Origin: an uncultured delta proteobacterium
Lineage (GTDB): Bacteria; Myxococcota_A; Polyangia; Haliangiales; Haliangiaceae
Length of the DNA: 64,000 nucleotides
Assembly: GCA_963848295.1 (NCBI GenBank)
Contig: CAWKDB010000004.1
Location: 270,296 to 334,295 of the forward strand
Reading direction: 5' to 3'
Shown here: positions 9,494 to 29,640 of the stretch, in pieces
Numbering within the stretch: position 1 is the stretch's first letter
How the letters are laid out: each line of letters begins with the position of its first letter
Notes under the pieces: generated by a model
The model's input: the letters and a program-made list of their open reading frames with translations, nothing else
Database searches by the model: none
What the model was told of the DNA's origin: nothing
Made by a program: the position numbers and the translations under genes

Positions 9494-9542
9494 GCGCTGA
9501 CGATGCCACGGCCACGGCGGGAGTTGCGCGCAGCGGGCTCGC

Positions 9543-10115
9543 TCAAGTGCGGTTCGCAGCCTGGTTGATCCTGAAGTGCAGCTTGGCGACTTGCTCGGGA
9601 GTCAGCTTCGATCGCAGGACAACACCACCATACGAGCGGAATCGCGCATCGAGGTCGTCTGGATCGGGCTCGCGGAGCAGGATGAAGATCGCCGAGTCAC
9701 CGGCTGCGACCGTGGCGCGGATGTTGTCCACGAACTCGTCGGAGACTCCGAGCTCGTTCTTCCACCACGAGTCATCGACCGCGCCGTGCTTGGCGCCGAT
9801 GATCGAACCGCCGACGGCGCCGGCGACGAACGTGGTGGCGGCCGCCACGGTGCCCACACCCGCGGTGACCGGAAGCGCGAGCGCGGCGAGCACGATCCCG
9901 ACGAACGAGCCGAGTAATCCGCCGACGATCGCACCTTCGCCTTTCGACGATTGGTAGCTGCGATCGATGGTCAGCTCTCCACGATCGTTTCGATACGCTG
10001 CCACGGCGCCGTGGAGATTGGCCGACCAAGCTTCGTCGCGCGCCCTGATCTGGCCCAGTACAACCGCGGCCCGTTCGATGTCCTGCTTGAAGGCGACGAC
10101 GACGAGCTCTGACAT
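9543..10115 (-). CDS. DUF1269 family membrane protein
   Basis: MSELVVVAF start, Gly-rich TM segment GAIVGGLLG and GVSDEFV...GDSAIFIL...YGGVVLRSKLT. TATGAT lies 6 nt before the ATG. Confidence 0.82.
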   Translation of the reverse strand: MSELVVVAFKQDIERAAVVLGQIRARDEAWSANLHGAVAAYRNDRGELTIDRSYQSSKGEGAIVGGLLGSFVGIVLAALALPVTAGVGTVAAATTFVAGAVGGSIIGAKHGAVDDSWWKNELGVSDEFVDNIRATVAAGDSAIFILLREPDPDDLDARFRSYGGVVLRSKLTPEQVAKLHFRINQAANRT

Positions 10116-10236
10116 GCCCCGATCATATGCCGTCAGCTGCCCCGTGGTTGCAACGTGCGCCTCCGCGCGGTGCCGATGGTGCGAACGCGCGGTGAGCGCC
10201 GTTTCGTGACCTTGCTGCCGATCGTTTGCTCCCGCG

Positions 10237-11619
10237 TCATCGCGAGATTCGCTCGAGGGACTTGTTCGTCGCGGACGGCCCGGCAAGCGCGAGCAACCCC
10301 GCGATGAGCCCGGTGCAGCCGATCGCGGTGAAGCCGGCGCGAAACGACCAGGCCGTGACGAGCACGGGTAAGCCGAGCGCGCCGACGGCGCCTCCGAGGT
10401 GCCCGAGCCCGTCGCTCAGGGCGAATCCTGTGGCGCGCGCCCTCGTCGGGTAGCTCTCGACCGTGAACGTGTAGGTTATTTGGAGGTACATGCCGAGCGC
10501 CATCGAGCCGAGGAACGAGCCGGTCGCGATCACGACGTCGCTCGCCAAGCTTCCGATCGCGAGCATGCCGCCGAGCCACAACACCGTCGACCCGACGATC
10601 AGCAGCTTCCGCTCCAGGCGGTCGGCCAGCGCGTACATGACGAGCGCGCCGACCGGATACCCGAGCGCCCCCACGGCGAGATACCCGAGCGAGCTCGCGA
10701 TCCCGATGTGCTGGCTCGCGAGCAGCGTGGGCGCGTCGCCGAGGAAACCGTAGTTGCCGACGTACCAGAAGAACCACATCGCCGCGAAGATCGCGAGCCG
10801 GCCGGCATAAGGTCGGTGAAAGAGATAGCTCGTCGGGAAGCGCCCGCGCTCGCTGCTGATCGGCTCCGGGTGCGGCTCGGCGAGCGCGACGCCCTTCGCC
10901 TTCGCCACCGTCTCCATCTCGGAGACCAGCTGCTCCGCTTCGTCGATCTTGCCGTGCAGCACGAGCCAGCGCGGCGACTCCGGTAGCCGCGACCGCATCG
11001 CCAACGCGATCACGGCGATCGCGCCGCCGATGACAAACAGCAGTCTCCAGCCGAACGAATAGTGGGGCACGAGCGCCAGCGCGACGAACGGCGTGACGGT
11101 CTGGCCGATGATGCCGATCAAGAACGTGAGGACCGAGATCCTGCCGCGCTTGCCCGCAGGCGCCATCTCGCCGAGGTACGTCGACACGAGGTTGAGATCG
11201 GCGCCGACGCCCATGCCCGTGACGAACCGCCAGAACGACAGGCTGACCAGGCCGGTCGCCGCCGCATCGCCGAACGAGCCGACGGCCGTGAGCAGCATGG
11301 TGAACAGCATGGTGCGGTACCGACCGTAGCGATCGGCCATCGTCCCGATCACGTACGAGCCCGCGATGTACCCGACGAGGCCGACCGCGAGCGCGACGAA
11401 CAACGATTCGTTCCCCGTGAGATCGAGCTGTCGCCCGATCGCGGGCATCGCATAGCCGATGTCCGTGATGTCGTAGAACGTAAAGAAGTAGCCGATGCCG
11501 ATGATGATCAGGAACGACCGCGAGAACGACCACACCGGGATCCGATTCATCCGGCCAAGGACGTTCGCGCCCTTCGTCGCGATCTCGTCGCGATCGTCGC
11601 TGGCGTCGCCGCCGGTCAT
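10237..11619 (-). CDS. MFS transporter (sugar porter / aromatic acid type)
   Basis: About 12 TM segments. GTMADRYGRYR, LPESPRWL, ADRLERK and ESYPTRARATG motifs. Confidence 0.92.
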   Translation of the reverse strand: MTGGDASDDRDEIATKGANVLGRMNRIPVWSFSRSFLIIIGIGYFFTFYDITDIGYAMPAIGRQLDLTGNESLFVALAVGLVGYIAGSYVIGTMADRYGRYRTMLFTMLLTAVGSFGDAAATGLVSLSFWRFVTGMGVGADLNLVSTYLGEMAPAGKRGRISVLTFLIGIIGQTVTPFVALALVPHYSFGWRLLFVIGGAIAVIALAMRSRLPESPRWLVLHGKIDEAEQLVSEMETVAKAKGVALAEPHPEPISSERGRFPTSYLFHRPYAGRLAIFAAMWFFWYVGNYGFLGDAPTLLASQHIGIASSLGYLAVGALGYPVGALVMYALADRLERKLLIVGSTVLWLGGMLAIGSLASDVVIATGSFLGSMALGMYLQITYTFTVESYPTRARATGFALSDGLGHLGGAVGALGLPVLVTAWSFRAGFTAIGCTGLIAGLLALAGPSATNKSLERISR

Positions 11620-11686
11620 GGTTTCTCGCGACCACATTTGCACACGTCGTGCGATGGAGCACGGGTGGCGCGGACTCGCCGGGTGG

Positions 11687-12955
11687 TCAGCCCGATCGCG
11701 TGCGCGCGTCCCCTGTCGGCGACGTCGATACCGGCGCGGGGAACAGCCCGAGCTGCCGCGCCACGCGATCGCGATCTGCCCCCGAGACCGGCAAGAGCGG
11801 CAGGACTTGCCGGTATCCGCTGCCGATCGCCGGCGCGCAGCGCTCCCCGGGGACGTAGCCGCCCCCGAGGTCCGCCTCCCGAACGGTCGCATTGTCCTCG
11901 CTGTCGGCCTGTCGGCTCAGCAACTCCGGCGAGGCGTGCTCGCGAAGGACGCGGCCCAGCGCGGAAGCGAGATCGTGGGCGGCGCGCACGCTGGAGTTGA
12001 GGCCCAGCGAGGCACCTAGCGGCAGCGCGTTCGCGGCCGCACCGAGCAGCCACACCGTCGACGTCGACGGGCGGGCCGCGATCCCTACCGGCATTCGCTC
12101 GAGCTGGCCCTGGCGCAGCTCACCCAGTGGTGTGCCGAGGTCGGGCAAGTAGCGCGCGACGAGCCTTGCCAGATCGTCGGCATCGGGTGCGGTACCGGCC
12201 GCCACGCGGGCATCGAGGCGCTCCGACGGCGGTAGCTGCAACGCGATCCTCGTGCCTCCGCCCGCAAGCGGCCACAGCGCGACGGTCGCCTCGCCGAGCG
12301 CGATCCTGATCTCGCGGCCCAGCGGTGGTCCGCCGTCGACCTCGAACACCGCGATCAGCTCCGGCGGCGCGAGCGTGCGCCATGGTAGCTCGAGCTGGCC
12401 GCGGACCAGCGAGTCGGCACCGTCCGCGCCGATCAGGAACGGGGGCTCGCGACGGAGGATGCGGCGCACCATGTGCTCCTCGTGAGCGACCACGTAGCCC
12501 GTCGGCTCGCTATCGATGACGTCGACGTTCGCGATCACGCGGTCGCGGCTCGCCTCGATGTTGCCGAGCCGGTGCCGCCACTGGACCGCGACGTGGCGGT
12601 CACGCAGTTGATGCACGAGCTTGTCGCACAGCCGCCAGCACGGCACGACCGCGGCATAGCCGAACCCCGACGGTGAGTCCCGAAGGTCCAGCGCCGCGAC
12701 GCGCGCACCGCGGTCGTAGATCGCCACGGTATCGATCGCGGCAGCTTCATCGGCCAGGTCGAGCTCCACGCCCGCGTCCTCGAGCCGCGCCAGCGTATCG
12801 GGATGCAGCACGACCGAGAGCTTGTCGGTCCGCGGCGCCCACGAGCCATCGACGATCTCGACTTCGATCCCGCGCTCTCGCAGGAACAGCGCGGCCGCGA
12901 GCCCGACCGGTCCTGCGCCAACGACTAGAGTGTGGTCGGTCTTGCGATGCGCCAT
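11687..12955 (-). CDS. FAD-dependent monooxygenase (FAD_binding_3 family)
   Basis: LVVGAGPVGLAAA Rossmann motif and LIGADGADSLVR. The GD motif is degenerate (GAAAN). Start at MAHRKTDH; the ORF-track extension upstream belongs to the Sel1 gene. Confidence 0.82.
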   Translation of the reverse strand: MAHRKTDHTLVVGAGPVGLAAALFLRERGIEVEIVDGSWAPRTDKLSVVLHPDTLARLEDAGVELDLADEAAAIDTVAIYDRGARVAALDLRDSPSGFGYAAVVPCWRLCDKLVHQLRDRHVAVQWRHRLGNIEASRDRVIANVDVIDSEPTGYVVAHEEHMVRRILRREPPFLIGADGADSLVRGQLELPWRTLAPPELIAVFEVDGGPPLGREIRIALGEATVALWPLAGGGTRIALQLPPSERLDARVAAGTAPDADDLARLVARYLPDLGTPLGELRQGQLERMPVGIAARPSTSTVWLLGAAANALPLGASLGLNSSVRAAHDLASALGRVLREHASPELLSRQADSEDNATVREADLGGGYVPGERCAPAIGSGYRQVLPLLPVSGADRDRVARQLGLFPAPVSTSPTGDARTRSG

Positions 12956-13008
12956 GCGGCACCTTCGTCGAGAAGTCTGCTCTTGGAAGAAGCAAGTCGC
13001 GTACCGGA

Positions 13009-13773
13009 TCATGGCGCGGCCGAGGCGCTGGATCCGCGCTGTTCGGGAGCCGCCGGCCTGCTGGTCGCGACGTTTACGCGCGTGCGTCTGCGCGTACAGC
13101 GCGCGGGTACGCACGAGATCGACCGCGACCCCGCGCCTGTCCTTGTATGCCAGCGCGAGTGCATCGCACTCGTGCCCATCTTTGCTGCACGCTTGCTCGA
13201 GGAACGCCAACGCTCGCCTGGGATCGGCCGCGACACCCTCGCCGTGATCGAGTGCGAGGCCTTGCGCCGTGCAACCCCCGGCGACGTCCAGCTTGCACGC
13301 GCGCTCGAACGCCGCATACGCGTGCTTCGGTTCGGCCGGCCCCCGAGCCCGTTGCGCCACTCCACGCCAAGGTCGAAACATCCAGGTCCGTATCCGCTGT
13401 CACACGCCGTGGTCAAGAGTCCTCTCGCGAGGCGGAAATCCTGGTCGGGATCGCCAGTGGATCCGATGTGGTGGCCGAGGTCGTTGCCCACGAGCCCGCA
13501 CGCGAAGTGCCCGGCCCGGTCTTTCACGTTGCATGCGGCCACGAAGTACTTGTGCGCGCCTTCGACGTCGGACTTGCCGAGCTTACCTTCGCGGAGCACG
13601 TACCCCGCCGCGACGCAGCTCCTCGAATAATGCAGCGTGCAGCCGTGATCGAACGCATCCAACGCCTGAGCTGCGGCCTTCGGTTCGAGCTTGGTGCCCA
13701 GCGCGTAGCACGCGTCGCCGCTCCCACATGGTGCGGGGTCCGCCGCCGCCGTTGCTGCGACTGCTGCGATCAT
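13009..13773 (-). pseudogene. Sel1-like repeat secreted protein, frameshifted near 13340
   Basis: Cys-paired Sel1 repeats (ACYALG...FDHGC, CFDLG). They continue in a second frame (AFERACKLDVAGGC...LEQACSKDGHEC). The shift may be a sequencing indel; the 3' end is uncertain. Confidence 0.7.
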
Positions 13774-13959
13774 TGCGTGTGCGACGAGCTTACGAGCGCC
13801 GACCTTATCTCGGCAGCCCGATCGAGAACGACTACGAAGACGTCCGCCGTCAACATGCGTGGCAGTGAAACCGCCCTACGCGGCGACCTGACGGCAGGCG
13901 CTCGACGACGTCATCTGTGGACCTGTAAGCAGTGAGCGCGGTCGCCGTTGTTGGACGTC

Positions 13960-14247
13960 ATGCGGATGTTTATCCTCGGAGTGCTCGTCACCGCCGGCTG
14001 CTGGCGACTCCACGCGAGCCGCACGTTCCCGATGCCCACGCGGCCGGATCGGCAGTGCACCGCTGGCTGGAACGAGCTGTGGATCTGGGATTGCCTCGAA
14101 GGACAGCACGTCGTGATCCATCAGTTCTGCGGCGAGTGGGGCGGATGCAAGCCGCCGCTCAAGGACGTCTATGCGTGTGGCGAGACCTCGGGCTACGAGC
14201 GGTCCATCCAGCCCGGCCACTGCGACATCAGTGCGCCCGGCTGGTGA
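13960..14247 (+). CDS. Small Cys-rich lipoprotein, hypothetical
   Basis: MRMFILGVLVTAGC lipobox, with 6 further Cys. Confidence 0.55.
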   Translation: MRMFILGVLVTAGCWRLHASRTFPMPTRPDRQCTAGWNELWIWDCLEGQHVVIHQFCGEWGGCKPPLKDVYACGETSGYERSIQPGHCDISAPGW

Positions 14248-16877
14248 CGGTTACCCGCGTGCGGCTCGGGCTTGTCCGTAGTGCCTGCCTTGTCCGACCG
14301 CCGGCGATCCCGGCGACGACGCCCGATCAACAGCGCCACGAGCGCGGAGATCGGCGCGGCTCCCAGGCCGGTGCCACCCGCGGCACAGCCGCCGCCATGG
14401 GAGCCATCGCCGGCACCGGAACCGGAGCCACCGCCGGAGCCGGAGCCGCCGCCAGAGCCGGAGCCGGAGCCGGAGCCGCTACCGCTGCCGCTTCCCGAGC
14501 CCGAGCCGCACGAGCCGGTGTCGATCATGACGCAGGTCCCGTCGGCGGTCGCGCCAGCCGCCACGCTGCACGCTTCGCAGTCGTTCGGATCACCGCCGCC
14601 GCATGCGGTGTCGCAACACACGCCGTCGACGCAGAATCCGGTCGCACAGCCGGTGGCGTCGTCGCATCCACCGCCGTCGGGCGCGACCGTCAACACCCGC
14701 GACTCGACGCGTGGCGCACCATACGGCGCTTGCAGCACGACCCGGCCATAGACGACGGAGGCGGTCGAGTCGCCGGTGGCCGCGAGGCCGATCGTCGGCA
14801 GCACGCCCGATGCGGCCACGAGCGGCGACGCATCCAGCACGCTGCCATCGCTCGCGATCCGCGCCGCGTGAAGCGTGTACGTCAAGGTGTCGGTGCTGTC
14901 GGCCCACATCACGACGTAGTCGCCGACATACGCGACCATGCTCGGCTCGACATAGCTTGCGACGGGAGAGATCACGATCGGCGTCGCATCGACGATCGCG
15001 CCCGACGCCATCACGCGTGCGCCGAGCACGCGAGTCGAGAGACCGGCGTTCCAAGCCACGAAGAAGTCGGTTCCATTCGACGTCACGGCGGGCGCGTAGT
15101 CGTAGCTGGCGGGGCCGACGACGATCGGCGTCGCATCGCTCACGACACCCGCCGGGGTAACGCGCACCGCCGCGATGGTGTCGTGCGTGCTGTCTTCCCA
15201 CGCGACGAGCGCTTCGCCGCCGTTGCTCGCGATCGCCGGCGTCAGCTCCGTCGAAGCTCCGGCGTCGAGTTGGAACGCGGCGGTATCGAGGATCGTGCCA
15301 TCGGGGCGCACGCGCACGCCCTCGATGCGGTACTGCGCCGCCCACACGACGAGGTACACACCGCCGACGTACGCGACGCGCGGGTTCGCGACGAACGACG
15401 AGGTCGTCGGCAAGTGCAGCGGGACGGCATCGAGCACGCTACCGTCACCGGCGACCCGCGCGGCCGTGATCCAGCCGCTGCTGGCGGCGACCACGAGATA
15501 GTCAGAACCATCCGACGCGACCGCCGGCATATTGGCCGAGAAAGGAATGACCTCGAACGAGTGGGCGTCGAGCGCCGTGCCATCGGGGGCGAGTCGCACC
15601 GCGTACGTGCAGCCGCTCGTGCCATTGGCGCAGCGCGAGTCGACCCACACCGCGAGCGAGCTCGTCGCCGCGCTCGCGATCGCCGGCGTCTGCTCGGTGT
15701 TCGCCGCCGTCGAGATCGCGATCGCCGACGGATCGAGAATGACACCGGCGGTCGACACGCGCGTGCCATACACGCTGGACTCGCCGTTGTTGTGCGGGTA
15801 TCCCGACCACGCCGCGAGCACGCCGGATGCACCGCGCGCGAGCGCAGGTCCAGCGAAGCCGATGCTCGACGGCGAGAGCGTCAGCGCCGGTGCGTCGCGC
15901 ACGACGCCCGCCGGTGACACGCGCGTCCCGGCGATCCCCGATCCGGTCGTCCACGCGACCAGCTGATCGCTGCCGTCGAATGCGATCGCGGGCTGGCTGC
16001 CTTGCGAGCTGATCACGAGCTCGGAACCCAGCGTCGCACCCGAGGTTGCCATCCGTTGGCCGTGGATCGCATTCGGGAATGTGTGGGCATCCTGCCAGGC
16101 GACGAGGTAGCTCGTGCCGTCGAACGCGACCACCGGCGACTCCTGGCCGGTCGTCGATGCGCCGAGGGGAATCCCGTCCGCGTCGAGCACGGATAGGGAT
16201 GTGGTGACGCGCGCGACGTAGATCTCCGAGTAGGCGGAGCCAAGCCGTGAGTCTTGCCACGCGACGAGGACGTTCGTGCCGTCGAACGCGACGCGCGAGT
16301 TGCTTTGCGACCCGAGCGCGCCGCTGATCGTGACCGGTCCCTGGACGACCGTGCCGTCGGTACCGACGCGTAGGCCGACGATGTCCGGGTTCGATGTCGC
16401 GGTCGTGTACGCCACGAGATAGTCGCTGCCGTCGAACACGACGTCCGGCGACTCGCCCGCGGTCGCGAGCTCGATCGGCGACGCATCCAGCACGGTGCCC
16501 GCAGGGGACACGCGATCCGCGTACACGCGATTCGACTCGGTCATCCACACCACGAGATAGTTGGTGCCGTCGAACGCGACGCGCGGCGCGAGCAAGGTGT
16601 CCTGGATGGGCGCCGAGATCCGGAACCCGACGGGATCGAGCACCGCGCCTCCCGCCGAGACTCGCGCGCCGAAGATCTCGGGAGATCCGAGCTCGCGGAA
16701 GTCGCTCCACACCACGAGGTAGTTGGTGCCGTCGAACGCGACCGCGGCTCCCTGTTTCGTACCGAACGAAACGCCCGCGACCGGAGGATCGACCGCGACC
16801 TCCGCGGAGAACGGCGTGGCGCCGGCGGTGGCTGCGGTCACGCCGATGCAGAGCAGGATCGAGCAGGTGTGATTCAT
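14193..16877 (-). CDS. MYXO-CTERM-sorted surface protein with (A)FDGTNYLVVW beta-propeller-like repeats
   Basis: Signal peptide, then about 12 repeats of P.VAFDG.NYLV.W...I.G.RV...G.VLD. Cys-rich CATGFCVDGVCCDTAC, a GS linker and a GGGCAAG...hydrophobic-RRRR tail. Confidence 0.88.
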   Translation of the reverse strand: MNHTCSILLCIGVTAATAGATPFSAEVAVDPPVAGVSFGTKQGAAVAFDGTNYLVVWSDFRELGSPEIFGARVSAGGAVLDPVGFRISAPIQDTLLAPRVAFDGTNYLVVWMTESNRVYADRVSPAGTVLDASPIELATAGESPDVVFDGSDYLVAYTTATSNPDIVGLRVGTDGTVVQGPVTISGALGSQSNSRVAFDGTNVLVAWQDSRLGSAYSEIYVARVTTSLSVLDADGIPLGASTTGQESPVVAFDGTSYLVAWQDAHTFPNAIHGQRMATSGATLGSELVISSQGSQPAIAFDGSDQLVAWTTGSGIAGTRVSPAGVVRDAPALTLSPSSIGFAGPALARGASGVLAAWSGYPHNNGESSVYGTRVSTAGVILDPSAIAISTAANTEQTPAIASAATSSLAVWVDSRCANGTSGCTYAVRLAPDGTALDAHSFEVIPFSANMPAVASDGSDYLVVAASSGWITAARVAGDGSVLDAVPLHLPTTSSFVANPRVAYVGGVYLVVWAAQYRIEGVRVRPDGTILDTAAFQLDAGASTELTPAIASNGGEALVAWEDSTHDTIAAVRVTPAGVVSDATPIVVGPASYDYAPAVTSNGTDFFVAWNAGLSTRVLGARVMASGAIVDATPIVISPVASYVEPSMVAYVGDYVVMWADSTDTLTYTLHAARIASDGSVLDASPLVAASGVLPTIGLAATGDSTASVVYGRVVLQAPYGAPRVESRVLTVAPDGGGCDDATGCATGFCVDGVCCDTACGGGDPNDCEACSVAAGATADGTCVMIDTGSCGSGSGSGSGSGSGSGSGSGGGSGSGGGSGSGAGDGSHGGGCAAGGTGLGAAPISALVALLIGRRRRDRRRSDKAGTTDKPEPHAGNRHQPGALMSQWPGWMDRS

Positions 16878-16893
16878 CGTGCGCCAGCGGGTT

Positions 16894-16908
16894 TGCAACG
16901 CACGTGCC
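16894..16908 (-). promoter_or_regulatory. Putative sigma54 -24/-12 promoter
   Basis: GGCACGTGCGTTGCA on the - strand (GG-N10-GC), 17 nt upstream of ATG 16877. Confidence 0.4.
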
Positions 16909-17099
16909 CCGCGCAACCGGGTGCGAATGCAGCCCTCGTGACCCGGCGAGCGTCGTCGCGCGTTCACGTGCGCCCCAAGGCTTCGCACGCGGTCACTGCC
17001 GCGTAACATTGCAGCGCGATGACAACGCGGACGACGCTCGTGACGATGGGCGCGGCGGCGGTCACGCTGGCGATGGCGATCGCGCTGCTGTCCTGGTGA

Positions 17100-17834
17100 T
17101 CACTTCGGCAGCACGAAGTCGTGGCTGACCTTGATGCCGTGCTGCGTCGCGGGGAAGCGCAGGCGCTCGACGTGCCCCTCGATGCAGTCGAGCGCGGAGC
17201 CCGAAGCGTCGACCGGTCCCAGGCTCATCGCGACCTCGCCGCTCGGCAGGACCGTGATGTCGTAGGTGACGCGAGCGGGGCCGACGCAGTCGGAGAGATC
17301 GACTTGAACGACCGCGGCGACCACGGTCGCGGCCGCGGGCGCGTCGGGAAGCTTCGGCTTCGGTTTCGGCTTCGGCTTACGCGCCGGCGCCGCGTGCACG
17401 CGTGGCCGGGCGGGTGCGGATACGCGCTCGGTTTCGGCGCGAGCCTCGTCGGCGCGCTGCTCGGCGGCGACGCGCTGCGCCTCGGCCTGGGCGACCGCCG
17501 CACGCTCGCGGGCGCGCACTTGGTCGATCGCCGAGGTCTCAGGGGGTACAGTGGTCGACACTGGCGCGGCGGGCGATCGAGCGTGCACCGCGAACGCGAG
17601 GCCGAGCGCCGCGACCGCGATCCCGACGGCGACCGACGCCAGGACCGACATCCGCGCGGCGGACGGCGCGACGGCCGGGGGCTCCGCCGTGATCGCGCGG
17701 TCCTCGGGCGCGGCCACCGCGGCCGGCAACCACGACGTCTGTCCGCAGTACGCGCACGACACCTGCTCCTGCCCGGGCACGACCTGCAGTGGCGCATCGC
17801 AGTTGGGGCAGCGAATCGAGGTCGCGGGGTCCAC
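17100..17834 (-). CDS. Zinc-ribbon + TM + Pro-rich linker + TonB-C/AgmX-like C-terminal domain protein
   Basis: CPNC...CAYC, a TM helix, a KPKPKPKP linker and C...CIE...LRFP at the C-terminus. TAAGCT lies 7 nt before the GTG. Confidence 0.7.
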   Translation of the reverse strand: MDPATSIRCPNCDAPLQVVPGQEQVSCAYCGQTSWLPAAVAAPEDRAITAEPPAVAPSAARMSVLASVAVGIAVAALGLAFAVHARSPAAPVSTTVPPETSAIDQVRARERAAVAQAEAQRVAAEQRADEARAETERVSAPARPRVHAAPARKPKPKPKPKLPDAPAAATVVAAVVQVDLSDCVGPARVTYDITVLPSGEVAMSLGPVDASGSALDCIEGHVERLRFPATQHGIKVSHDFVLPK

Positions 17835-18032
17835 CGCTTCCAGCTTACCGCGGCGGCGGCCGGCCGATCAGCGCGGACGCCTTCGCGACGTCGTGGCGGC
17901 CGAGCGCTGCGCCGGCAGCTTCGGGATCGCGCGCGACGAGGGCGAGACCGCGTCGCGCGAGATCAGCGCGTGCGAACCGGTCGAGGTTGGAATCGACGTT
18001 CGCGAACACCACCTCGTGCACCGTGCCGTAGT

Positions 18033-18129
18033 GCGCGGCACCTCCCGCGCGGACGAGCATGACATGCGAGGACGCCGCTCGGCGTCAGCCGAGGGCGCCC
18101 TCCACGAAGTGGAGGCGGCGGGAGTCGAA
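18033..18129 (-). repeat. ~96-bp direct repeat, copy 1: tmRNA 3'-end fragment (att core 18109-18129) plus hairpin trailer
   Basis: The - strand reads TTCGACTCCCGCCGCCTCCAC, matching the T-loop/acceptor 3' end typical of tmRNA. Near-identical to 19100-19195. Confidence 0.85.
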
Positions 18130-18254
18130 ACGTTAGGACACATCTTTCTCGACGAGCACTTGCCCGATTCTTCGAGACAAACGGCCCGACTGATTCCCGC
18201 TGCCGCCTTCGTATGGCGTCTGCTTTTGCAGCGTCCGTGGCAGCGCCGACGTGA

Positions 18255-18635
18255 TCAGCCGAACTCGATCGTGAGATTGCCTAGATCGATAATCGCTCGC
18301 GCAGCTCTTAAGAAGTCCATGCCGATGATCCCACCGAATTCGAAGCCGTAGTCCATCTCGCCGATCTCGACTTCGAATCCATCGAGGCCGTGATCGCCGA
18401 CCGCGAATCGATCGACTTGCCTCATGAAGACGTGCTCGTGGCCGCCGACACCTCGAAGCCGACGCAGCTGATCGCGCGGCTCGAGATAGATGTCAGCCTC
18501 CGCCGCGAGGTCGGCGTTGATCACTGTACTCACCGCACCCGTGTCCACCAGGACGTCTGGGATCTCGACCGTCGTGCCTCGGTACCTCAGGGTCGCGGTG
18601 ACATATACGAGCTCATGCTGGGAGATGAGTTGCAC
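18255..18635 (-). CDS. Retropepsin-like (clan AA) aspartic protease
   Basis: LVDTGA catalytic motif, flap GVGG and GIIGMDFL. Confidence 0.9.
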   Translation of the reverse strand: MQLISQHELVYVTATLRYRGTTVEIPDVLVDTGAVSTVINADLAAEADIYLEPRDQLRRLRGVGGHEHVFMRQVDRFAVGDHGLDGFEVEIGEMDYGFEFGGIIGMDFLRAARAIIDLGNLTIEFG

Positions 18636-18891
18636 GCAGCCCCCGGACGCCAAGCCAAAGACGTTCTTCGATCTCTAATTCGACCATGCTCGTGTGCACG
18701 AAGCAGAACTCGCGGTGCGGATGCTCGCGTCGGAGCTCGGCGTAGCGCTTCATCGTTGCTCGCCCGTCGGGGCAATGGTCGATCACTGCGATCCTGTCGT
18801 AGACGCGATGATCGTTCTCAGAGTGTGCGTCCAACGCCTCGATCACGAGCCATTGATCTGGATGTGCCTCGCGCACTTCGGGCCAACGCAT
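18613..18891 (-). CDS. Small DUF5678-like partner protein of the aspartic protease
   Basis: 92 aa, MRWPEVREAHPDQWLVIEAL. Overlaps the protease start; TACGCT lies 5 nt before the ATG. Confidence 0.72.
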   Translation of the reverse strand: MRWPEVREAHPDQWLVIEALDAHSENDHRVYDRIAVIDHCPDGRATMKRYAELRREHPHREFCFVHTSMVELEIEERLWLGVRGLRATHLPA

Positions 18892-19052
18892 GAACCAGCG
18901 TAGTCGCTGAATCTGACATCGAGCAACTTCCGCGCGAGGCGGCGGGTGTTTCTATGGAGAGATCCCATTTCTCGACGACAGCATCGTGGCAGCGCGTGAA
19001 GAAAGACACGCCACCATGGCCTCAACATGTGGAAACCATAGTCGAATAGATA

Positions 19053-19072
19053 GTGGAGGCGGCGGGAGTCGA
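19053..19072 (-). repeat. tmRNA 3'-end fragment, att core copy 2
   Basis: GTGGAGGCGGCGGGAGTCGA is identical to 18109-18128 and 19175-19194. Confidence 0.85.
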
Positions 19073-19099
19073 CGACGCGCAGCAACGGAGTTGCAAGCG

Positions 19100-19195
19100 G
19101 CGCGGCACCTCCCGCGCGGACGAGCATGAAATGCGAGGACGCCGCTCGGCGAAGCCGAGCGCGCCCTCCACGAAGTGGAGGCGGCGGGAGTCGAA
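19100..19195 (-). repeat. ~96-bp direct repeat, copy 2: tmRNA 3'-end fragment (core 19175-19195) plus hairpin trailer
   Basis: Differs from 18033-18129 at only about 4 positions. Confidence 0.85.
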
Positions 19196-19302
19196 GGCGG
19201 CCTGAAGGATTCACGAGTTCCAAATCGGATGGGAATCGTGGAGGTTTGAGCCGGCGCGCGAGACCCATCCGTGTCGCTTCGTGCTGCTCCGCGATCACGG
19301 AT

Positions 19303-21464
19303 TCAGGGAGGTGCCTGACATGAAGCGCTAAGTCCATCGAGTGCGCCAAGCAACCACGAGTCGTCGGGATTGAGGGACAGCAAGCGCTGATCGCCGCTTG
19401 CCGTGAACGCCGCGTTGCCAGAGTGCACTTGTCGATAAGACTGCATCGTCAGATCGGGCGCGCACGTGGCCGTGCAGGGAGTTGCAGCATGTGCTGTCTC
19501 CAAAGACGCGAACAGCGAGGGATCATACTGAAATCGGATCCGTGGATCGCTGGGGTTCACCGCGTAGCGAAAGCCCCGCACGAAGACGTTTCCGTCGATC
19601 TCGATCCTTGGCCATGCGAACAGCTCGTCGCTTGCCTTCGCGAACCCCATCGCAAGTCCGCCTCCAACGCCGGCCGTGGAATTGCCCTGGTGTTTGATGA
19701 TGTCCCACATCACGCTGCCGAACGCATGGAACGAATGGCCAGGTGGTTTCGATTGCTCGATCGCGTCGCACACGATCGGGACGTACTCAGTCGCGCCGGT
19801 GACAACATAAGACCGCTCGCCAGGACGCGGGCGCCACACCGAGATGTCCCCGTACGAGTGTTCGATCGCACCTTGGCGTTCTTCGCGACGTGAAAGGCGA
19901 ACAACGAATCGCACGGCTTGTGGATCACAGGAACCTGGCCACGTGATTCGCGATCAGCTTCGGGTCCTCCTGAAACATCGCGAAGGTTGCGCAGAGGGCC
20001 GTGTCGCGCTCTTCGACGGTCTTGTAAAAGCGATTGTGGGTGGTTCGTTTCTTGGTCACTTTCCAGACACCTTCAATCGCATTGAACTCGGGCGAATAGG
20101 GCGGCAGTCGGAACAGCTCGATGCGATGGCGGTTCTCCTTTAGCCACAGCTTTCCGTCTTCCTTGAGATTGTGGCAGGGACCGTTGTCGATGATCAGGAA
20201 GATCTTGCGCCGGGTTCGAGCAACGACCTGCTTGAGGAAGTCGAAGAACGTGAGTCCGTTGAAGACGGGCGCAAACTTGTAGTGGAACCGTGGTCGTTGC
20301 TCGAGCGTAACGACGCCGAAGACGTGCGCCGTCTTGCGCATGCCGAACGTGTCTACGCGGGGCTGGCAGCCAACTCGGGACCACGTTTGGTGGAGCGTCC
20401 CGTCGAGCCAGAAGCTGGCCTCGTCGCCGAAGGCAACGACGCCGCGGCACTGGCGCGCTTTTTTTAATCTTCGGCAAGGTCTCTCGCAGCCACGTGGCCT
20501 GCCGCGCAGATCGGCTCGGGCCAGCCGTTTACGCGGCCGCTGGACCGAGAACTTGAGTTGGTGCAGGAGCCTCGGCACGTGATGATTGTGATAGCGAACG
20601 CCGAACCGCTCCTCGATCAGGTCGCCGATCATCGGACCGGTCCAGACACCGGACTGATAGCCTGCCTGCATCGGGCCCAGTTCAATGATGATCCCCAGAG
20701 CCTCGCGTTGCTCGTCGGTGAGCTTCGGCGCAGGGCCTTCGGCAATCGAAGTCCGAAGCCCCTCAACGTGATCGACGTCGTACCACTGGAGCCAGCGATT
20801 GACGGAGCCGCGTGTGATGCCGAAGTCGACCGCGATGTGCGTGACTTTTCGTCCATCGATGTATGCACGAACAGCACGGCCCCGACGCCATTCGCCGAGG
20901 TCGTTCTTGAGTTGCGCTTCGACGATAAAATCGTCGAGCTGTTTGAGCTGCGTGCCACGGCGACGCGAGCGACGAATTGCCTTGCCTGGTTGAGATCGAG
21001 CCACGATCGCCGCACGATGATCCTCTCGGGATCCTTCGTCAATAGGCGAGGATCTCAGCCTGTGCGATCTGTTTAGACCTGGCGTGTTGTCGCTGAAGAA
21101 TCCCGCGAGGATCAAGGTTACGTCGCGAACATCTGAGTTCGCGAAGACTTGTTGGAATTCTCCGAAGATCGCCTCGAGGTGCATTCGGAATGGCGTCGGC
21201 CCACAGCGAGTGGCGCTTCCCGACTTTTCGTCGGTGCGCGTGATACCAGGTAATAAATGGACGCGCGGCTTCGACGGCCATCACGAAGGGAATTAAGTCA
21301 CCCGAGGCGACGGCCGCACTCCGCTCGCTCAATGTCACGGCCTTAACAGAGTTGTCGAGGCGCTTGCCTTCCGAGGTGAGGCGCGAGTCCGCCATCAGAA
21401 TCACCTGCGAATCGTCGGGATTCTGGTCCGCAGGTCGAGATGCGAAACCCAACGCGAGTGTCAT
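19303..21464 (-). pseudogene. Proteasome-beta/Anbu-like Ntn-hydrolase, split by IS630 (plus a frameshift near 21188)
   Basis: The N-terminus MTLALG...ILMADSRLT....K...SG has the Thr1/DSR/Lys pattern. It continues LILAGF.SDNTPGL, then after the IS resumes in frame as VRLSRR...VVTGA...TAGVGGGL. Confidence 0.62.
19901..21074 (-). mobile_element. IS630 family element (HTH ORF + DDE_3 ORF, A7 slippery site)
   Basis: HTH (VNRWLQWY, WTGPMIGDLI), then FGDEASF, LIIDNGPCH and LPPYSPEFNAIEGVW. T7 run at 20459-20465. Imperfect IRs AAC(A)GA(A)TCGCAC(A)GGC at both ends; boundaries approximate. Confidence 0.9.
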
Positions 21465-21640
21465 CTAGGCCACGTTATCGTACGTCCGTCCCGAAGACTT
21501 GCATTTCCCGCTCGACGCCACGAATGAAATGTTGCCGAGCGGTCTGTTGCCCGACGAGGCAACGTCGCCACGCAGGACGACAGAGCATGAGCTCAGCACA
21601 GCGGGCCCCAGGACGACGACGACGCGTGCGCCGGAGCAAG

Positions 21641-22490
21641 CTATGCATGTGCCGCAAGAAGCGGCGCTAGCCGATCGATCTCTCTCGACACTTCGTGAGC
21701 AATCTCTTCGGGGATGCTGAGCACGATCGTGAGCGTCGCATTGTACGGCGTACCCGGCGGCGCGCCTGCGAGCGCGCGGCAACCTTCTTCGAACACGCGA
21801 TCGATTTCGCTCGGAACGTTTTCGACAGCTAGCTGTGCCTGGCTCATGAACTTCGGAAGGAGCTCGAGGATCCGGTCCGTCTCTTTCGACGCGCAAGTTG
21901 TGTGAATCCACTCGAGGCCCCATCGGACTAATCGCCGGTAGAGGTCCCCGACACGGTGAGCTACGTACTCCAGCAGCTCAGGGTCGCCAGGTTGTCCCGG
22001 TGGACCTAGGCCATCGGCGAGACTGTTTCGATGAGACGGGTGAAGGTCTTCAGCGCTGAGGTCGCGTCGTGCATCGACGACCGGATCGCCTGGGGCAACT
22101 CAGGAGGTTGGAGCACCCGTGGCACACTCACGACGATGCCGTACTTCAGGTCTCGCGCTTCGTCACGACTGCTAGCGATCTCGTCGCGAAGTAGCTGGCC
22201 GAATAGACGATGCGACCACCCGAGTGAGCGCTCGGCCACGATCCGCGCGGCCTCGATGCTGATCGTGCGCCCGTTCAACGTCGGCGTGGCCTCTTTGGAA
22301 GGGCGCTCGCCGATGTTTTCCTGAACGTAGGCCTCGTGCTGTCGCTTCCAAGAACCCAGTACTTCGACAGTGTACCGAACCACGTCGCGATCGACCTGGG
22401 TGGCGTGTGTCGCGCATAGCCAGATCCCGTTCTCTACCGACGACCGCCCCTCGCTCGTCATTTGACCGTCGAAACGAGGTCCTCGAACTC
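21641..22490 (-). pseudogene. HNH-like nuclease domain protein, N-terminally truncated, frameshift near 22005
   Basis: GPRFD...RSSVENGIWLCATHATQVDRD...LGSWKRQHE. The C-terminal part continues in a shifted frame (LGPPGQPGDPELL...MSQAQLAVE) to 21641. Confidence 0.65.
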
Positions 22491-22520
22491 CGCAATCGTA
22501 CCATGCGCTAGCGTAGTTAC

Positions 22521-22658
22521 GTGGAGCGGTCTCACTGGATCGAGCGCATCGCCCGCGCACGCGCCAACCATAACGTGGTGTGGCTGGCAGGCGTTCGGCG
22601 CGTTGGCAAGACGACCCTCGCCAAGGCCCTGCCGCACGCGCGCTACTTCGGCGCATAG
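22521..22658 (+). pseudogene. AAA_14/DUF4143-type ATPase N-terminal fragment
   Basis: Manual translation gives VERSHWIERIARARANHNVVWLAGVRRVGKTTLAKALPHARYFGA*, which has a Walker A motif and then stops. Confidence 0.65.
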
Positions 22659-22993
22659 GCCACGTGCAACTGCGACGTCGCTGACCCCGACGTGCTCGAG
22701 GCGACGTTCCTCGAAGACTTCCACGCGTTCGATCCGGTCGAGCGCTCGCTGCCGCTCACGCCGGACGTCGGCGGTCTGCCCGACGAGGCCACCGTCGCCG
22801 ACCTGGTGCGGGCGACGCTCGCGCGGGGCGGCCGAGCAGCGTCCGCGTCGCCCGGACGGACGCCGAGCGGAGGGCAGCTGTGATGGCTGCAGCGGGGGCC
22901 CGGCGGACCGCGCGCATGGTCGGGTAGCCTGGCGAGCTGACTCGCCGGGCTACCCGACCGCACCCATATCGGCGTCGATCACCCAGCCGATAG

Positions 22994-23400
22994 TCACTGC
23001 CCTGCCATGAAGACGAGCGGGTAATCGACCACAGCTCGCTCGTCGAACCGCGCGCCGGCGGGCACCGCGAACGCGAGGATCTGCTCGCACACACATGCGT
23101 CGACCGTCGCGTCGAAGCCGCGGATCGCGACGTTGCCGACGGCACCGGCGCGATCGACCTGAAACGACTCGTAAAGGTCGCCGCCGACGCCCGGCTCGCG
23201 CGCCAGCAGTTGCTGATAACATGCCAGGATCGGACGATGGCGCTGGCGCATCAGCTCGCGCACGGGATCGGGAAACGTCGTCGGCGGCTCGGGGGGCAGT
23301 GCGGGCGGAGATTCCTCGGCGAATCCTTCGAGTCTCGGCGGTACATAGGTCGGAGCGAATGAGCGCAGCGGCGGCACACGCGGACCACAGCGCGTCACAC
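22994..23400 (-). pseudogene. AgmX/PglI C-terminal domain fragment
   Basis: ILACYQQLLAREPGVGG....F.V...G.V...DACVC...F.VP...VDYPLVF. Its 5' end abuts the att trailer at 23419. Confidence 0.6.
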
Positions 23401-23418
23401 CATCGGCGTCGCGAACCA

Positions 23419-23469
23419 CTTACGAAAACAAAGAAGGCCTCGCATCTGCTCACGAGACCCTTCGTTTCC
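23419..23469 (-). terminator. Terminator-like trailer downstream of the tRNA-Ala fragment (repeat shared with 48123-48175)
   Basis: - strand GAAGGGTCTCGT-loop-GCGAGGCCTTC-TTTGTTTT. Confidence 0.6.
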
Positions 23470-23519
23470 TGGTGGAGCCAAAGGGGGATCGAATCCTGAC
23501 CCCTAGAGTGCGATTCCAG
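23470..23519 (-). other. 3' fragment of tRNA-Ala(CGC), an integration-site (att) scar rather than a full tRNA
   Basis: - strand CTGGAATCGCACTCTAGGGGTCAGGATTCGATCCCCCTTTGGCTCCACCA contains the anticodon arm (CGC), T-loop TTCGAT and the Ala acceptor end GCTCCACCA. No 5' half is present. Confidence 0.8.
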
Positions 23520-23696
23520 GCGGCTTGGGGCCATTCCGCGAACTTAGGAGCCGCCGACGTTACCAGGTTCGAGGGAGCTTCGTGGAACGCCGAGCCCTAC
23601 GAGTGGGTCTCGATCAGAAACACGCGCTCGGTAACATCGATCGGCTGTCTCGCCCTTCGTTTCTGGGGCAGCCAACCAACTGAGCGATCGGCTCCG

Positions 23697-24634
23697 TCAG
23701 AGCATAGAGATGGACATCACGATCGGTTGATCGGCCAATTCTTCGGAGACGCCGCCGCTAAGCGATCGCCCCTCTCGGGCCAAGGCGACGACAAAGTTCC
23801 GCTCAGAAAATTCCGACCGGAGTTCGTACAGGAAGCTACCGGTAACATGATAGTGCAGCTGACCGAGGAGCATCGGGTCCTCATCGGCTGGTGTCAGCTC
23901 GAGACCGAGCTGCAACGATTGTCCGTAACGCGAGGCGAACTCGGCGTCCGGTAGCAGCTTTTCGATATCAACGAAGAAGCTGGTTCGTGGACGCGGCGGT
24001 GGCATCGAGACGGATGCTTCGCCTTGCGTGGACACGACCCGACTCGTTTCCCTCGGCGCGAAAGTTAATGCCGACAGTCGGCGCTTCGAGAACAGCAATG
24101 GCAACGAGACCTTCAGGAAGCTGAAAACGAAGTTGCACATGATGGAGCTGATGCTTACTTGTGGAGCGGATCACCACTTCGTGGTCGCGGTACAGCGCTG
24201 TCTCTTTGCTCGTCACGACCTCCTGTCCAAAGACGAAGAGCCCCGTGTTGGTTTTGAACTTGATCTGCGGCAAACCAGGAACGAAGTCTCCGCTCCGCAG
24301 CCACTCGTCGTGCTCACGTTTCCATGTGCGAAGGAGCGCAGGAGGGAATGCGGCTTCGTCTCTATCGACGATGTCGGCGCACGGGCCACAGAGCCAGATG
24401 CCGTTGGAAAAGGCTGAACGCTCGGGCCGGGCTTTGGCTGGCATCGTATCGTGCACCACCTGGGGAAGCGCCAAGTATGTGCGCCGCTCGCCCGGTCTTT
24501 ATCGATGCGGCCTCATCAGAAAGGCTAGGCAAGATTGTCCGCGTTCGACAGCGGGGGCGCGAGCAGAGAAAGGCGGCTCGCTCACGGAGTAAGCGAATTG
24601 TCAGCTGACTAAAGTTGTCTCGTGGCAGCGACAC
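23697..24634 (-). CDS. HNH-like nuclease domain protein with unknown C-terminal domain (2 frameshifts)
   Basis: RDNFS...RAAFLCS.P.C...GRAAHI.GASPGGARYD / ERSAFSNGIWLCGPCADIVDRD...LRTWKREH / C-terminal piece 23697-24010. TAGAAT lies 6 nt before the GTG. Confidence 0.72.
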
Positions 24635-24690
24635 GTGGCCATTCTACGCCGCAGTTGGCTACGACTAGAGGTCGATGCCATAATGCGGCG

Positions 24691-25517
24691 ATGGGGTCGG
24701 AGGTGAGTGAAGAGGGCGGTCCTGTGGCCACCGCGAACCCAAGAGCGGTTGACGCTCAGGATGACCGACTGATCGCCTTGTGGAAGGAACAGGAGGCGAT
24801 CGCGATGCACTTCAACGACCTCATCGCGCGCTTCAGAATCCAGAGCGCTCGGCGGTACCGCCGCGATCGGTGCCGTCGGTGCCCTGGTCACTGAAGCTTA
24901 CCGCCAAGACGGGCGGAACTGTGCCAACAGTCGCGTGGACGATTTTCGCTCTGATGTCGTTCTTGTTTGTCGCGTGGACTGCGCTTTGGATGCTCGACTA
25001 TGGCTACTACCAGCGGCTTCTCGGTGGCGCGGTGCGGACGCTACTCGATTTCGAAAAAACGTTGCCCTCGTACGCTGCGCGAGTAAGCACTCGCATTGAA
25101 GAGAACTTCAGGACCGCGTATCACGGCCATTTTTGGTTCTATGCATTGATACACGGTGCGCTCGGGATGCTCGCGATGTTCGCTCTATACGACGCGGCCG
25201 GATGGGGAGGCTGGCTTGCTCTCGGAATGACCGTCATCGCAGGATGGACGACCGCTGTGCTATGCAACGTCTGGCCGTCGTCGGCTTCAAGAGCGAAGGC
25301 CGCACTGGCGCGAACCGAGTTCGTGGCTAACAAGATCGTGGAGGTGGCTGAAGCACGGTCCGCTGCGATTAGAAAAAAGGCAGAAGCGAAGGCTGTAGCG
25401 AGAACAACAAAGGCGAAGGCGAAAGCAGATGCAGCGCAGACGGCGCGCCTGGCCCTCGATGAAGTCCGAGCACAGAGGGAGCGCGCGAAGGAGCTAAAGC
25501 GCGACGACCGGGCGTAG
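24691..25517 (+). CDS. Multi-TM membrane protein with C-terminal coiled coil (frameshifted about 24845-24895)
   Basis: HFNDLIARFRIQ...WMLDYGYYQRLLGGAV, with about 4 hydrophobic segments. CATAAT lies 6 nt before the ATG. Confidence 0.62.
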
Positions 25518-25519
25518 AA

Positions 25520-26220
25520 GTGATCCGCGAGCTCTGTTGGGTGGGTCGTTGCACTAGCAGAGCGAGAAGCGTCGCTCTTGCGAAAGGATCTCAACGATTC
25601 CATTGGAATATGCGCTCTCGCTGCTGGCCAATCGACAGGGCGCGCGCCCTGTTATTTCTCGCAAGCACAAAGCGAAGACTGGAGCGCCAACTCACGGTAG
25701 CTGCCGACTTGCGCGCGCAGCTGACGGCTGAGTATCGAGAGCTGCTGTTCCAACAAGGCGACGCTCTCGCGCTTGGAAAAGAGCTGCAAAGCTCGCCTGA
25801 CGATCTCGCCGATGTCTTCTCGATGTGTCGGCGTGGGAGTGACTTCCTGTTGCTTGGCGATCGGGGACGCGCTGAGGAGTGGTATCGTGACGCCCTCTCT
25901 CGCTCTAGCACCGGTGATGAAAAATACTCCGCGCTGTGGGGACTCCGCCCCGAAGCTCGAAATACGGCACTCCGCGCGAGACTCGAACGTGATCGTGGTT
26001 GCTGAACTGCCCTGATCGCGACGTCGACGACGTCGCGGATCGACTCGTCCAAGATCAACTACGGTGGCGACGCTTCTGCGGAGAAAAGTGCGCTCGAGAG
26101 TTCTTCGCCGCTGAACACTTCGAGATGGTCGAGACGTTCAGCTCGTGTGACTACTGCGCGGTCCGAGGCCCGGCCGCGCTGATGCGGTGCCCGAGTTGCG
26201 GAGCCGCGCGACAGAGCTGA
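25520..26220 (+). CDS. Hypothetical TPR-like protein with C-terminal Cys pairs (possibly one frameshifted gene)
   Basis: LGDRGRAEEWYRDAL helix, plus an overlapping ORF with CDYC and CPSC. Confidence 0.35.
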
Positions 26221-26319
26221 CGGGGTGAGCAACGTTTGCTATGGCGATCTCTGTCGCGTCATTGGTACCGAGATCTTCCGCGACGATATTACGGAACCGT
26301 ACTAAACCAGACCTCTTAG

Positions 26320-27484
26320 ATGGACACGAGGGAGCGCATCCTGCTTCCGTTGCACGACGCGACGTCCGGTCTCGAGATGACGTCGCCCCGCTGTTCTTGC
26401 ATCTTCTACTCTTCGAAAGCGTGATCCTTCAGTCGATCAGGCTCACCGATGTTGCTGCGCTCGTTCGAGCCATCGGCGCTGAACAAACGATCGAGTCCTG
26501 GACTCGGGGTGCGTTCACATTCGGGTCACGCCCGAGACGCTCGGGTACCCGGACGATCCCGATTGGAGTGCGGGTTCGTGACCGTCGACATATCGGATCC
26601 GGAGGCGGATCTGAGCGCCGCGATGCACGATGCGTTCGGCGTGTTGGCCCTCCCGAAACCGATCCGGAACAAGCTCAAGCTCGCGGTGGTACGCCGATGT
26701 CTTCGTGGTGGTTCGACACCGCACGGACGGGTGGCGATCGACGATGCGCTCGTCGAGATCACAGGTCAGTCGGCTGCATTTCTCCGGGCCATTCAGCGCT
26801 CTGCGGAAAAATACGCCCCGGGATTGGTTGTTCCGCCGGGCGCGATTTCGTGTGAGATCGACGACCCACTGACCCACCAGCTGCGCTACACCGCCAAAGG
26901 GCTTGCCGACACCCGCGGTGGTCGCCGAGGTGGTTCGCCGAGCGAGCCTCGCCGTGGCGTCTCTGAATGCAGAGCTAGGTCGCATGGAGCGCGATAACGC
27001 CGTGACCGCACTCGACGACGAATCGACCGAGTTGATGGGAGCAAGGATCAACGCTCTGTGGCAAGGCTTCGACCCGACGGAGGGTGCCGACTCGTTCGCG
27101 CGACTCGTAACGCTGCTCGACCTACCCAGCTTCGACGACGGGATCCGGGACCGGAGCCTGAACGTAGAACGGTTTCTCGAGTTACGCTCCACCGACGAGT
27201 GCCTGAATTTTCGGGCATTCTTACACAGCGCCGGGACTCTAAGTGACGCCGAGCTACGCGCGCGAGCAACAAGCCTTCGCGCTCGGCTCGGCAACATCGT
27301 TCAGAGCGCTCCAGGGCGAATACTCCGATTCTTGGCGACGGCAGCGATAGGAGTTAGAGCAAGGGAAGCGTCAATTGGGGTCGCGGTGGGTGCCGGCGAT
27401 TCGTTTCTGTTGGAGAAGCTGTTCCCGCGTTCCGGCATCGTCACATTCGTCGGGAAACAGTACCCATCGCTCTTCAAGGAATAG
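26320..27484 (+). CDS. Hypothetical protein (several frameshifts)
   Basis: Protein-like segments in successive frames: LLLFESVILQSIRL / FVTVDISDPEADL / PAVVAEVV...FVGKQYPSLFKE. Confidence 0.55.
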
Positions 27485-27690
27485 CCGGGCTGGTTCTACC
27501 CAGGCTGCATTCGAAGGCTCTCGAGGTTTGGGGGCGCGACTCCGCGCACCTGCGGCAGTGGGAGGCATTGACATGGTCCGCGGGAAACGATTTAGCTTTC
27601 AGCTATCGACAATCACCGAACTGGCTGAAGGCGATCTTTCGTTCTATCATTGCCGGCCGTAGGGCAACGCCAGCCAAGGGGGAGGACTAG

Positions 27691-27865
27691 ATGACGGAAT
27701 CTCAGAAGGGGAAGGACGCGGCGAACGAGACAAAGGCGCCTAAGAGTGCCGACCTCAATGAGCAGCTCCGCCAAGATGCGCGCGAGCTACGCGCGGTCGC
27801 CGAGAAGTACATCGTCGAAGAAGGCCGCGTGATCACGCGCGCGACGATCCCGCCCAAGATAAGGG
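27691..27865 (+). CDS. Small ~56-aa protein (stop uncertain)
   Basis: Strong SD GGAGG. MTESQKGK...ITRATIPP; an out-of-frame TAA at 27860 is followed by a terminator. Confidence 0.5.
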
Positions 27866-27884
27866 CAGAACGATATCGCCGTGC

Positions 27885-27912
27885 AGGGGCCCATTCATGG
27901 GTCCCTTTTTTT
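27885..27912 (+). terminator. Rho-independent terminator
   Basis: AGGGGCCCAT-TC-ATGGGTCCCT-TTTTTT. Confidence 0.8.
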
Positions 27913-27923
27913 ATACTCGACGA

Positions 27924-29565: not shown

Positions 29566-29640
29566 GCTCAGAATCTAGTCCGTCAAGGACGACATCAGCG
29601 GAGCGAGATCTCGGGCACTGGAAGTCCTTGCGAGTCCTAA

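Follow-up and report, generated by a model that had tools for sequence, protein, structure and literature searches.

An integrase-less 944-bp mini-island among tmRNA 3'-end copies at the far end of an island pile in an uncultured soil myxobacterium

Three 3'-end copies of the tmRNA gene ssrA lie close together in a 64-kb window (the whole stretch of DNA analysed), and their array forms the distal end of the islands piled up at ssrA. Two of the copies enclose a 944-bp unit, which is a real, well-delimited element of an already described kind, an integrase-less ssrA mini-island. In our preferred reading, to which we assign a probability of about 0.65, the cores are ssrA 3'-end copies at the far end of the island pile, and the 944-bp unit is an integrase-less derivative (CIME) that descends from a family of tyrosine-integrase islands in this myxobacterial genus, retains the att arms at both ends and would depend for its movement on an integrase from a related element. 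What is new here is an additional example, the kind of element itself being known, and the array works as site-specific accretion, not as an integron.

The three cores, all on the minus strand, are ssrA 3'-end copies at 18109-18129 (core 1, putative attR of the 944-bp unit), 19053-19072 (core 2, its putative attL) and 19175-19195 (core 3, putative attR of a large ssrA-proximal island). Their positions and spacings (944 bp from core 1 to core 2, 122 bp from core 2 to core 3) agree with the original prediction. Its assignment of the core to a tmRNA 3' end is also borne out, since the last 20 nt of the intact ssrA located by ARAGORN in the whole genome G000 (G000:C2:1500933-1501285) are identical to the 20-mer core. 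The intact gene is on contig C2 and the array on contig C4, and neither ARAGORN nor Rfam at the gathering threshold calls a tmRNA or other RNA gene within the window, as had been stated for ssrA. ARAGORN additionally calls a permuted tmRNA candidate with an unidentified tag in G000, which was set aside in the analysis. The assembly of G000 comprises 7.78 Mb in 11 contigs and is 85% complete; it contains only four exact core copies, namely ssrA and the three window cores. A fourth core outside ssrA, unremarked in the first reading, has two mismatches and lies about 520 bp to the left of the window (C4:269756-269775); it is an older copy. The core pattern was matched in 110 of 138 family genomes, and at least two copies are present in about 49 of the 138 by a hand count that includes some assembly duplicates, with two unpublished genomes among the rows. 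Additional ssrA ends are common in the family.

The intact ssrA is situated 5.9 kb from the end of contig C2, the window forms the end of contig C4, and these two contig ends have a 1285-bp segment in common (99% identical). The GC content is 0.65 behind ssrA, 0.63 from core 3 to the end of C4 and 0.59 in the 944-bp cassette, and the 18.6-kb stretch that separates core 1 from the fourth core has a host-like value of 0.69. On its outer side the fourth core abuts a gene that has a match (87% over 2.26 kb) in the DNA just behind the intact ssrA of G074. We infer the order ssrA, an island that contains a gap and measures at least 50 kb, core 3, the 122-bp unit, core 2, the 944-bp unit, core 1, an older unit of 18.6 kb, core 4 and host DNA, in which the C2-C4 connection spans an assembly gap that could hide an integrase. 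Most of the older 18.6-kb unit, which runs from core 1 to the fourth core at C4:269756-269775, occupies positions 1..18032 of the window. Positions 19196..64000, likewise passed over in the first reading, hold the distal 45 kb of the large island, which is IS-rich, has a low GC content of 0.63, reaches the contig end and would continue, beyond the assembly gap, in the 5.9-kb stretch that follows ssrA on C2. This island bears a dense set of IS genes (domains DDE_3, ISAZ013, DDE_Tnp_1, rve, IS66 and Transposase_29) together with Schlafen AlbA_2, Mrr and Imm49 genes, as noted for 19925-21184, 29668-30768, 32871-33611, 48279-49757, 55079-56782 and 61783-63978.

The 944-bp unit contains two ORFs only, neither with an integrase match, and keeps both cores and, as judged from its sequence, conserved left and right arms, in accordance with its original description as an integrase-less cassette. 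The right arm of about 115 bp (18130..18243, minus strand), seen in a 17-way alignment, carries the repeat pair CTGCCAC (18237-18243) and CTGCAAA (18225-18231), of which the second has the consensus CTGCCAG in relatives, and a conserved block at 18145-18155 that holds TTTCTCGACGA. The left arm (18936..19052, minus strand) has the repeat pair CTGCCAC (18986-18992) and CTGTCGT (18975-18981), located 60 bp from the core, and it also contains a core-like half site at 18936-18947. The 11-mers that had been proposed as possible arm sites, CGTGGCAGCGC at 18236 and 18985 and TTTCTCGACGA at 18145 and 18968, are the only interior repeats of at least 11 nt in the unit. Dinucleotide shuffles of the interior gave two such repeats in 23 of 1000 trials and one in 196 of 1000, so that the two repeats taken alone are of modest significance. 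Stronger support comes from conservation in relatives, where the alignment identifies CGTGGCAG(C) as the arm-repeat motif, and this part of the original proposal is retained. The left arm weakly resembles the final integrase codons, without significance (E 0.88).

A 12-bp copy of the right half of the core recurs 80-105 bp inside many left ends of differing arm types, including the window (18936-18947) and left ends in L011, L023, L149, L151, L161, L191, L193 and others. These half-site copies often lie where the cargo gene ends, and they could be used in cargo capture.

The cargo of the 944-bp unit consists of two overlapping genes on the minus strand. The downstream gene (18255..18653) encodes a retropepsin-like aspartyl protease with a DTG motif (PF13650, E 6e-12; TIGR02281 below cut-off), and its translation probably begins at a GTG located a few codons further downstream. 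The upstream gene (18613..18891) encodes a 92-aa protein of no named family: it matches no Pfam or NCBIfam family, and its structural model (pLDDT 79.9) has no match above Z 3.7 among 48,161 chains. It has 152 homologues and is common in metagenomes, and its Atlas matches are unnamed clusters only; a guess of DUF5678 was unconfirmed by family searches. A predicted promoter, TTGCTC-18 nt-TACGCT, lies upstream of the pair at 18897..18926 (minus strand). As to the earlier description of the unit as self-promoted, the block TTG..-18 nt-TA...T is conserved upstream of the gene pair in every context inspected, but a sigma-70 consensus scan returned no promoter sites for it.

In G020, G028 and L155 the same left arm, and then the gene pair, come after a core; in G022 and L149 the arm ahead of the pair is a related one, and in L150 the pair adjoins the right arm. 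At nine further loci with the pair or part of it, no core was present within the 2-8 kb examined. Since the pair is also found away from any nearby core, it can be regarded as a module of its own that is carried by an att-armed shell. From gene size, overlap and neighbours one may guess at a two-gene addiction or stress module; the literature searched, which covers few subscription journals, contained nothing on such a role for the protease pair as toxin and antitoxin. At L049:4464-5447 (G004), L036 (G017) and L183 (G123), other small units bounded by cores have arms of a different kind and carry two-gene modules that, judged by their translations, resemble RelE/ParE- and HicAB-type toxin-antitoxin pairs.

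Searches with the 115-bp right arm gave strong matches at six places in 5 of the 137 other family genomes and at 8 metagenome loci. Beyond G000, relatives and metagenomes together supplied 16 full right arms, all of which start with the CTGCCAC/CTGCCAG repeat pair and lie about 50 bp before an ssrA-end core. When metagenomes were scanned with a pattern that excluded the core, an ssrA-end core was nevertheless present at 8 of 8 loci; five truncated right arms (L059, L151, L152, L165 and L167) have no core following them. The pattern of right arm plus core matched no viral contigs and seven genome stretches, three of which, from other phyla, had neither arm nor core on inspection.

Seven complete units are closed by this right arm, with lengths of 944, 1498, 1506, 1727, 2712, 2768 and ~22,200 bp. 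A full-length frameshifted tyrosine integrase is present in the largest of them, the ~22-kb unit of G115, which begins at the intact ssrA with the CTGCCAC pair; a C-terminal integrase remnant sits in a 1.5-kb unit of G020, and the other five have no clear match. Intact PF00589 integrases of 403 and 393 aa, 83-85% identical to that of G115, were found in G111 and G090 behind the same CTGCCAC arm pair at cores, and both genomes also hold the right arm on another contig. The cargo before the right arm includes Mrr, AAA_21 with DUF4276, DUF6602, a conflict nucleotidyltransferase, ankyrin and DUF2695, as seen in a Pfam survey of 13 hand-chosen ORFs (10 with a Pfam family, two of these being integrases). 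Content between the same arms differs across genomes, which answers the check for variable cargo suggested with the original prediction. The frameshifts at L156:5139-5142 (G115) and L039:7219-7222 (G020) hit two different ssrA-island integrases at almost the same place (around residue 241 of the protein of 403 aa), in different local sequences; this coincidence could reflect chance or a mutation hot spot.

These observations can be combined in the following scenario for the preferred reading. An island with CTGCCAC arm repeats would have integrated by a crossover in the ssrA T-loop, displacing a 20-bp copy of the gene end. The integrase would then have been lost, with a small self-promoted gene pair, known also away from ssrA, filling the space between the arms, and later arrivals at ssrA would have pushed the unit outward. 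In this genome the 944-bp unit is probably stranded. The core-to-arm-pair spacing is 56-60 bp in six integrase-less left ends versus 37 bp in three integrase-bearing ones, and the second left-arm repeat also differs between the two types. As the cassette-type left arm differs from the integrase type, a direct deletion ancestor was not found. This counts against the preferred reading, as do the five truncated right arms that no core follows, the strong conservation of the right arms described below and the C2-C4 gap.

The strongest alternative, which we consider possible yet clearly the less probable account, is a dedicated non-autonomous cassette family, equivalent to the original proposal once its integron elements are taken away, whose small units would form circles of their own, be moved in trans by a co-resident integrase and be stacked singly at ssrA ends. 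The divergence data speak for it: among G000, G020, L155 and L150, shared genes differ at 40-48% of 4-fold sites and right arms at 8-24%, a conservation that exceeds the expectation for inert relics. Because the arms have diverged so much less than silent cargo sites, mobilisation of the 944-bp unit by a borrowed integrase is plausible on sequence grounds. Further support is provided by the common and distinct arm spacing of the six integrase-less left ends, by the tandem same-arm right ends (three in L155 and two in G020), by the gene pair directly behind the intact ssrA of G028, where 13.4 kb contain no integrase match, and by a second minimal junction in L150, in which the protease stop nearly abuts the right arm. 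Against it, the low arm divergence could also reflect repeated fresh deletion of active islands or arm exchange within tandem arrays, and the integrase remnants indicate a decay under way. The G000 right arm is moreover the most diverged among the gene-pair units compared, its second repeat having drifted to CTGCAAA. The G000 assembly (85% complete) has 15 PF00589 matches, none of them on C4 or at the end of C2; the best is about 31% identical, over the full length, to the G111 and G090 integrases, and no PF07508 serine recombinase was detected in the assembly. Contigs from four sequencing runs had neither a joint across the cassette nor a circle junction, although contigs drop rare variants.

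The closest G000 homologue (31%), an integrase at C10:389181-390275, is a weak candidate for cross-talk. Islands at the G000 genes for tRNA-Glu (C9:5235), tRNA-Ala (C10:4260503) and tRNA-Leu (C2:63632 and C10:389005) start with similar TGCCAC-type repeat pairs.

The gene-free 122-bp unit had been read as an empty cassette, an interpretation that our data do not sustain. On the minus strand it comprises, between cores 2 and 3 (19073..19174), the trailer T3 (19100-19174) and a 27-bp closing hairpin. The hairpin trailer T1 behind core 1 (18033..18108, minus strand) is a truncated unit of the same ssrA-end hairpin repeat and differs from T3 by three substitutions and one gap. The 122-bp unit has no ORF, is bounded by two full cores and folds into short triloop hairpins (z -3.3), with the first 12 nt of core 2 closing the final hairpin. 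It contains neither the left- nor the right-arm motif, and homologues lie directly behind the intact ssrA in G029, G100, G118 and G123. In 137 other genomes the pattern of tail, hairpin and core was matched in G029 by one search and in G100 and G123 by another, each time beside the intact ssrA. The G100 unit measures 104 bp and has a nearly full second core followed by foreign-looking genes; the second core is only partial in G029 and G123, and in G118 the tail follows ssrA without a second core. Given the missing arms and the homologues behind intact ssrA, the 122-bp unit is likely one unit of a hairpin-rich ssrA-end duplication rather than an emptied cassette. The shared trailer of about 75 bp noted in the original prediction is not part of the ends of the 944-bp unit. 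Because two 95%-identical trailers flank the cassette, the second repeat copy was probably the entry point for it or for its ancestor.

A search with the full-length trailer in 138 family genomes returned weak matches only, two of which (G100 and G123) are real partial homologues beside ssrA. A dispersed REP/MITE, which the original prediction had named as a finding that would speak against it, can be set aside because the G000 copies occur only at cores and the tail patterns were found in 1 of 137 and 2 of 137 relatives, all beside ssrA. In run X4, two low-depth contigs hold trailer pieces with other neighbours, too weak to use.

For the 122-bp unit alone one could instead propose a microCIME, an island remnant deleted down to its ends. 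Its lack of genes, its two full bounding cores and its length, slightly below the 130-220 bp given for microCIMEs in the cited description (PMC7563491), fit this proposal, as does the fact that its trailer also starts the 18.6-kb unit. We nevertheless regard it as improbable in view of the missing arm motifs, of the homologous hairpin units that directly follow intact ssrA (with the nearly full second core in G100 and partial ones in G029 and G123), and of the similarly built tandem arrays behind two G000 tRNA-Leu genes.

These tRNA-Leu arrays, at C10:1111600-1112711 and C10:2152500-2153225 (both on the minus strand), have a 188-bp period with six hairpin clusters and a 140-bp period with five 3'-end copies, respectively. 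They combine the tRNA 3' end with nested triloop hairpins and with inverted copies of the T-arm, and a module common to both resembles the T-arm of Leu(TAG) into whose loop a hairpin has been inserted. The array pattern was matched in 1 of the 137 other family genomes, and the literature searched, again with few subscription journals in its scope, contained nothing on a 'tRNA-linked repeat' with such a hairpin. The hairpin-rich duplications behind ssrA and the two tRNA-Leu genes may supply secondary att sites.

A broader proposal, which we hold to be unlikely, would unite these features: in the Kofleriaceae, self-sustaining sub-kilobase integrase-free cassettes with their own att-arm geometry would be circulated in trans by a rare tyrosine integrase, and hairpin-rich tmRNA 3'-end duplications would make fresh landing sites, giving a gene-capture array built of att sites rather than attC sites.

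Integrons are defined by IntI, attI, attC and Pc, with the attC box consensus RYYYAAC/GTTRRRY, and have in common with the present array that small gene units are stacked one after another at a single locus; they differ from it in that the array has no IntI and no attC, uses double-stranded att sites of the arm type and carries cargo with its own predicted promoter. The original prediction had spoken of an integron-like gene-capture array on tmRNA ends. A platform of this type, in which a fixed integrase would act at a single entry site on cassettes that lack promoters, is favoured by the tandem units, in which one recombination core recurs and the cargo varies, but it is largely refuted and very improbable, because 18001-19300 contains no R''/R' attC box pairs, C4 and the C2 end (with the gap in the assembly) have no PF00589 match, the cognate integrases score only 71-74 bits against an IntI cut-off of 265, the cargo has its own predicted promoter, and neighbouring units range from 0.1 to >50 kb and have unrelated arms.

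Our preferred reading of the 944-bp unit as an integrase-less island derivative is in line with several described systems. In the CIME definition cited here, tandem integration is followed by integrase loss, leaving attL and attR (PMC5704250), and in the account of Streptococcus salivarius the CIMEs that carry cargo measure 1.2-13 kb and the gene-free microCIMEs 130-220 bp, always in the position farthest from the target gene (PMC7563491). The 944-bp unit resembles the CIMEs of these descriptions in lacking integration genes, in retaining attL and attR in tandem with other elements, and in lying, like other decayed members, far from the target gene (through the putative C2-C4 connection). It differs in that the cited CIMEs come from streptococci, where ICEs or IMEs are given as their source, while the parent candidate here is an integrase-bearing island with the same right arm (G115) and a different left-arm spacing. 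At 0.94 kb it is also slightly under the published 1.2-13 kb, and the 122-bp unit differs from microCIMEs in having no arms.

In Dehalococcoides, as cited, tandem ssrA islands are bounded by 20-bp repeats, and 15 of 31 lack an integration module (PMC3146451). The likeness to our array extends to 20-bp ssrA 3'-end repeats, insertion in the T-loop, tandem arrangement and the frequent absence of the integration module, whereas the recombinase described there is the serine recombinase DsiB and that found here is a tyrosine integrase of ~400 aa with arm-type repeats (PMC3146451). The cargo of the 944-bp unit, a small protease gene pair, is a further difference. According to the cited Islander study, tmRNA is the most enriched target and tandem arrays occur (PMC4383910). 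With such tyrosine-integrase islands our array shares the regenerated gene and the displaced 3' fragment (PMC4383910), the displaced tmRNA fragments being in the same orientation as ssrA and downstream of it. These islands own an integrase gene, whereas the 944-bp unit has none and only larger members in relatives do. Since Islander, as described there, requires an integrase gene and at least 2 kb, units like the 944-bp one are filtered out and undercounted (PMC4383910). The Tycheposons of Prochlorococcus, in the cited preprint, are likewise small cargo elements that build islands at tRNA and tmRNA genes, but they encode their own integrase and often replication genes (bioRxiv 10.1101/2020.12.28.424599).

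The array provides a well-mapped case, from an uncultured myxobacterial family, of tmRNA-end islands that shrink to att-armed shells and swap small cargo of the defence or stress type, units that are overlooked by finders demanding an integrase and at least 2 kb. The parent integrase family, both arms and the minimal natural substrate are now identified, recombination being deduced from sequence. Movement of the shells in trans versus hitch-hiking becomes directly testable, circulation in trans seeming doubtful to us at present.

A further arrangement at ssrA ends was noticed at L142:323-1446 (G115) and L155:9485-10753, where a 12-bp inverted repeat and a transposase-like ORF come after the ssrA-end core. 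This ORF gave no Pfam match; it resembles REP-associated tyrosine transposases. In L155 the 12-bp inverted repeat appears again behind the last core.
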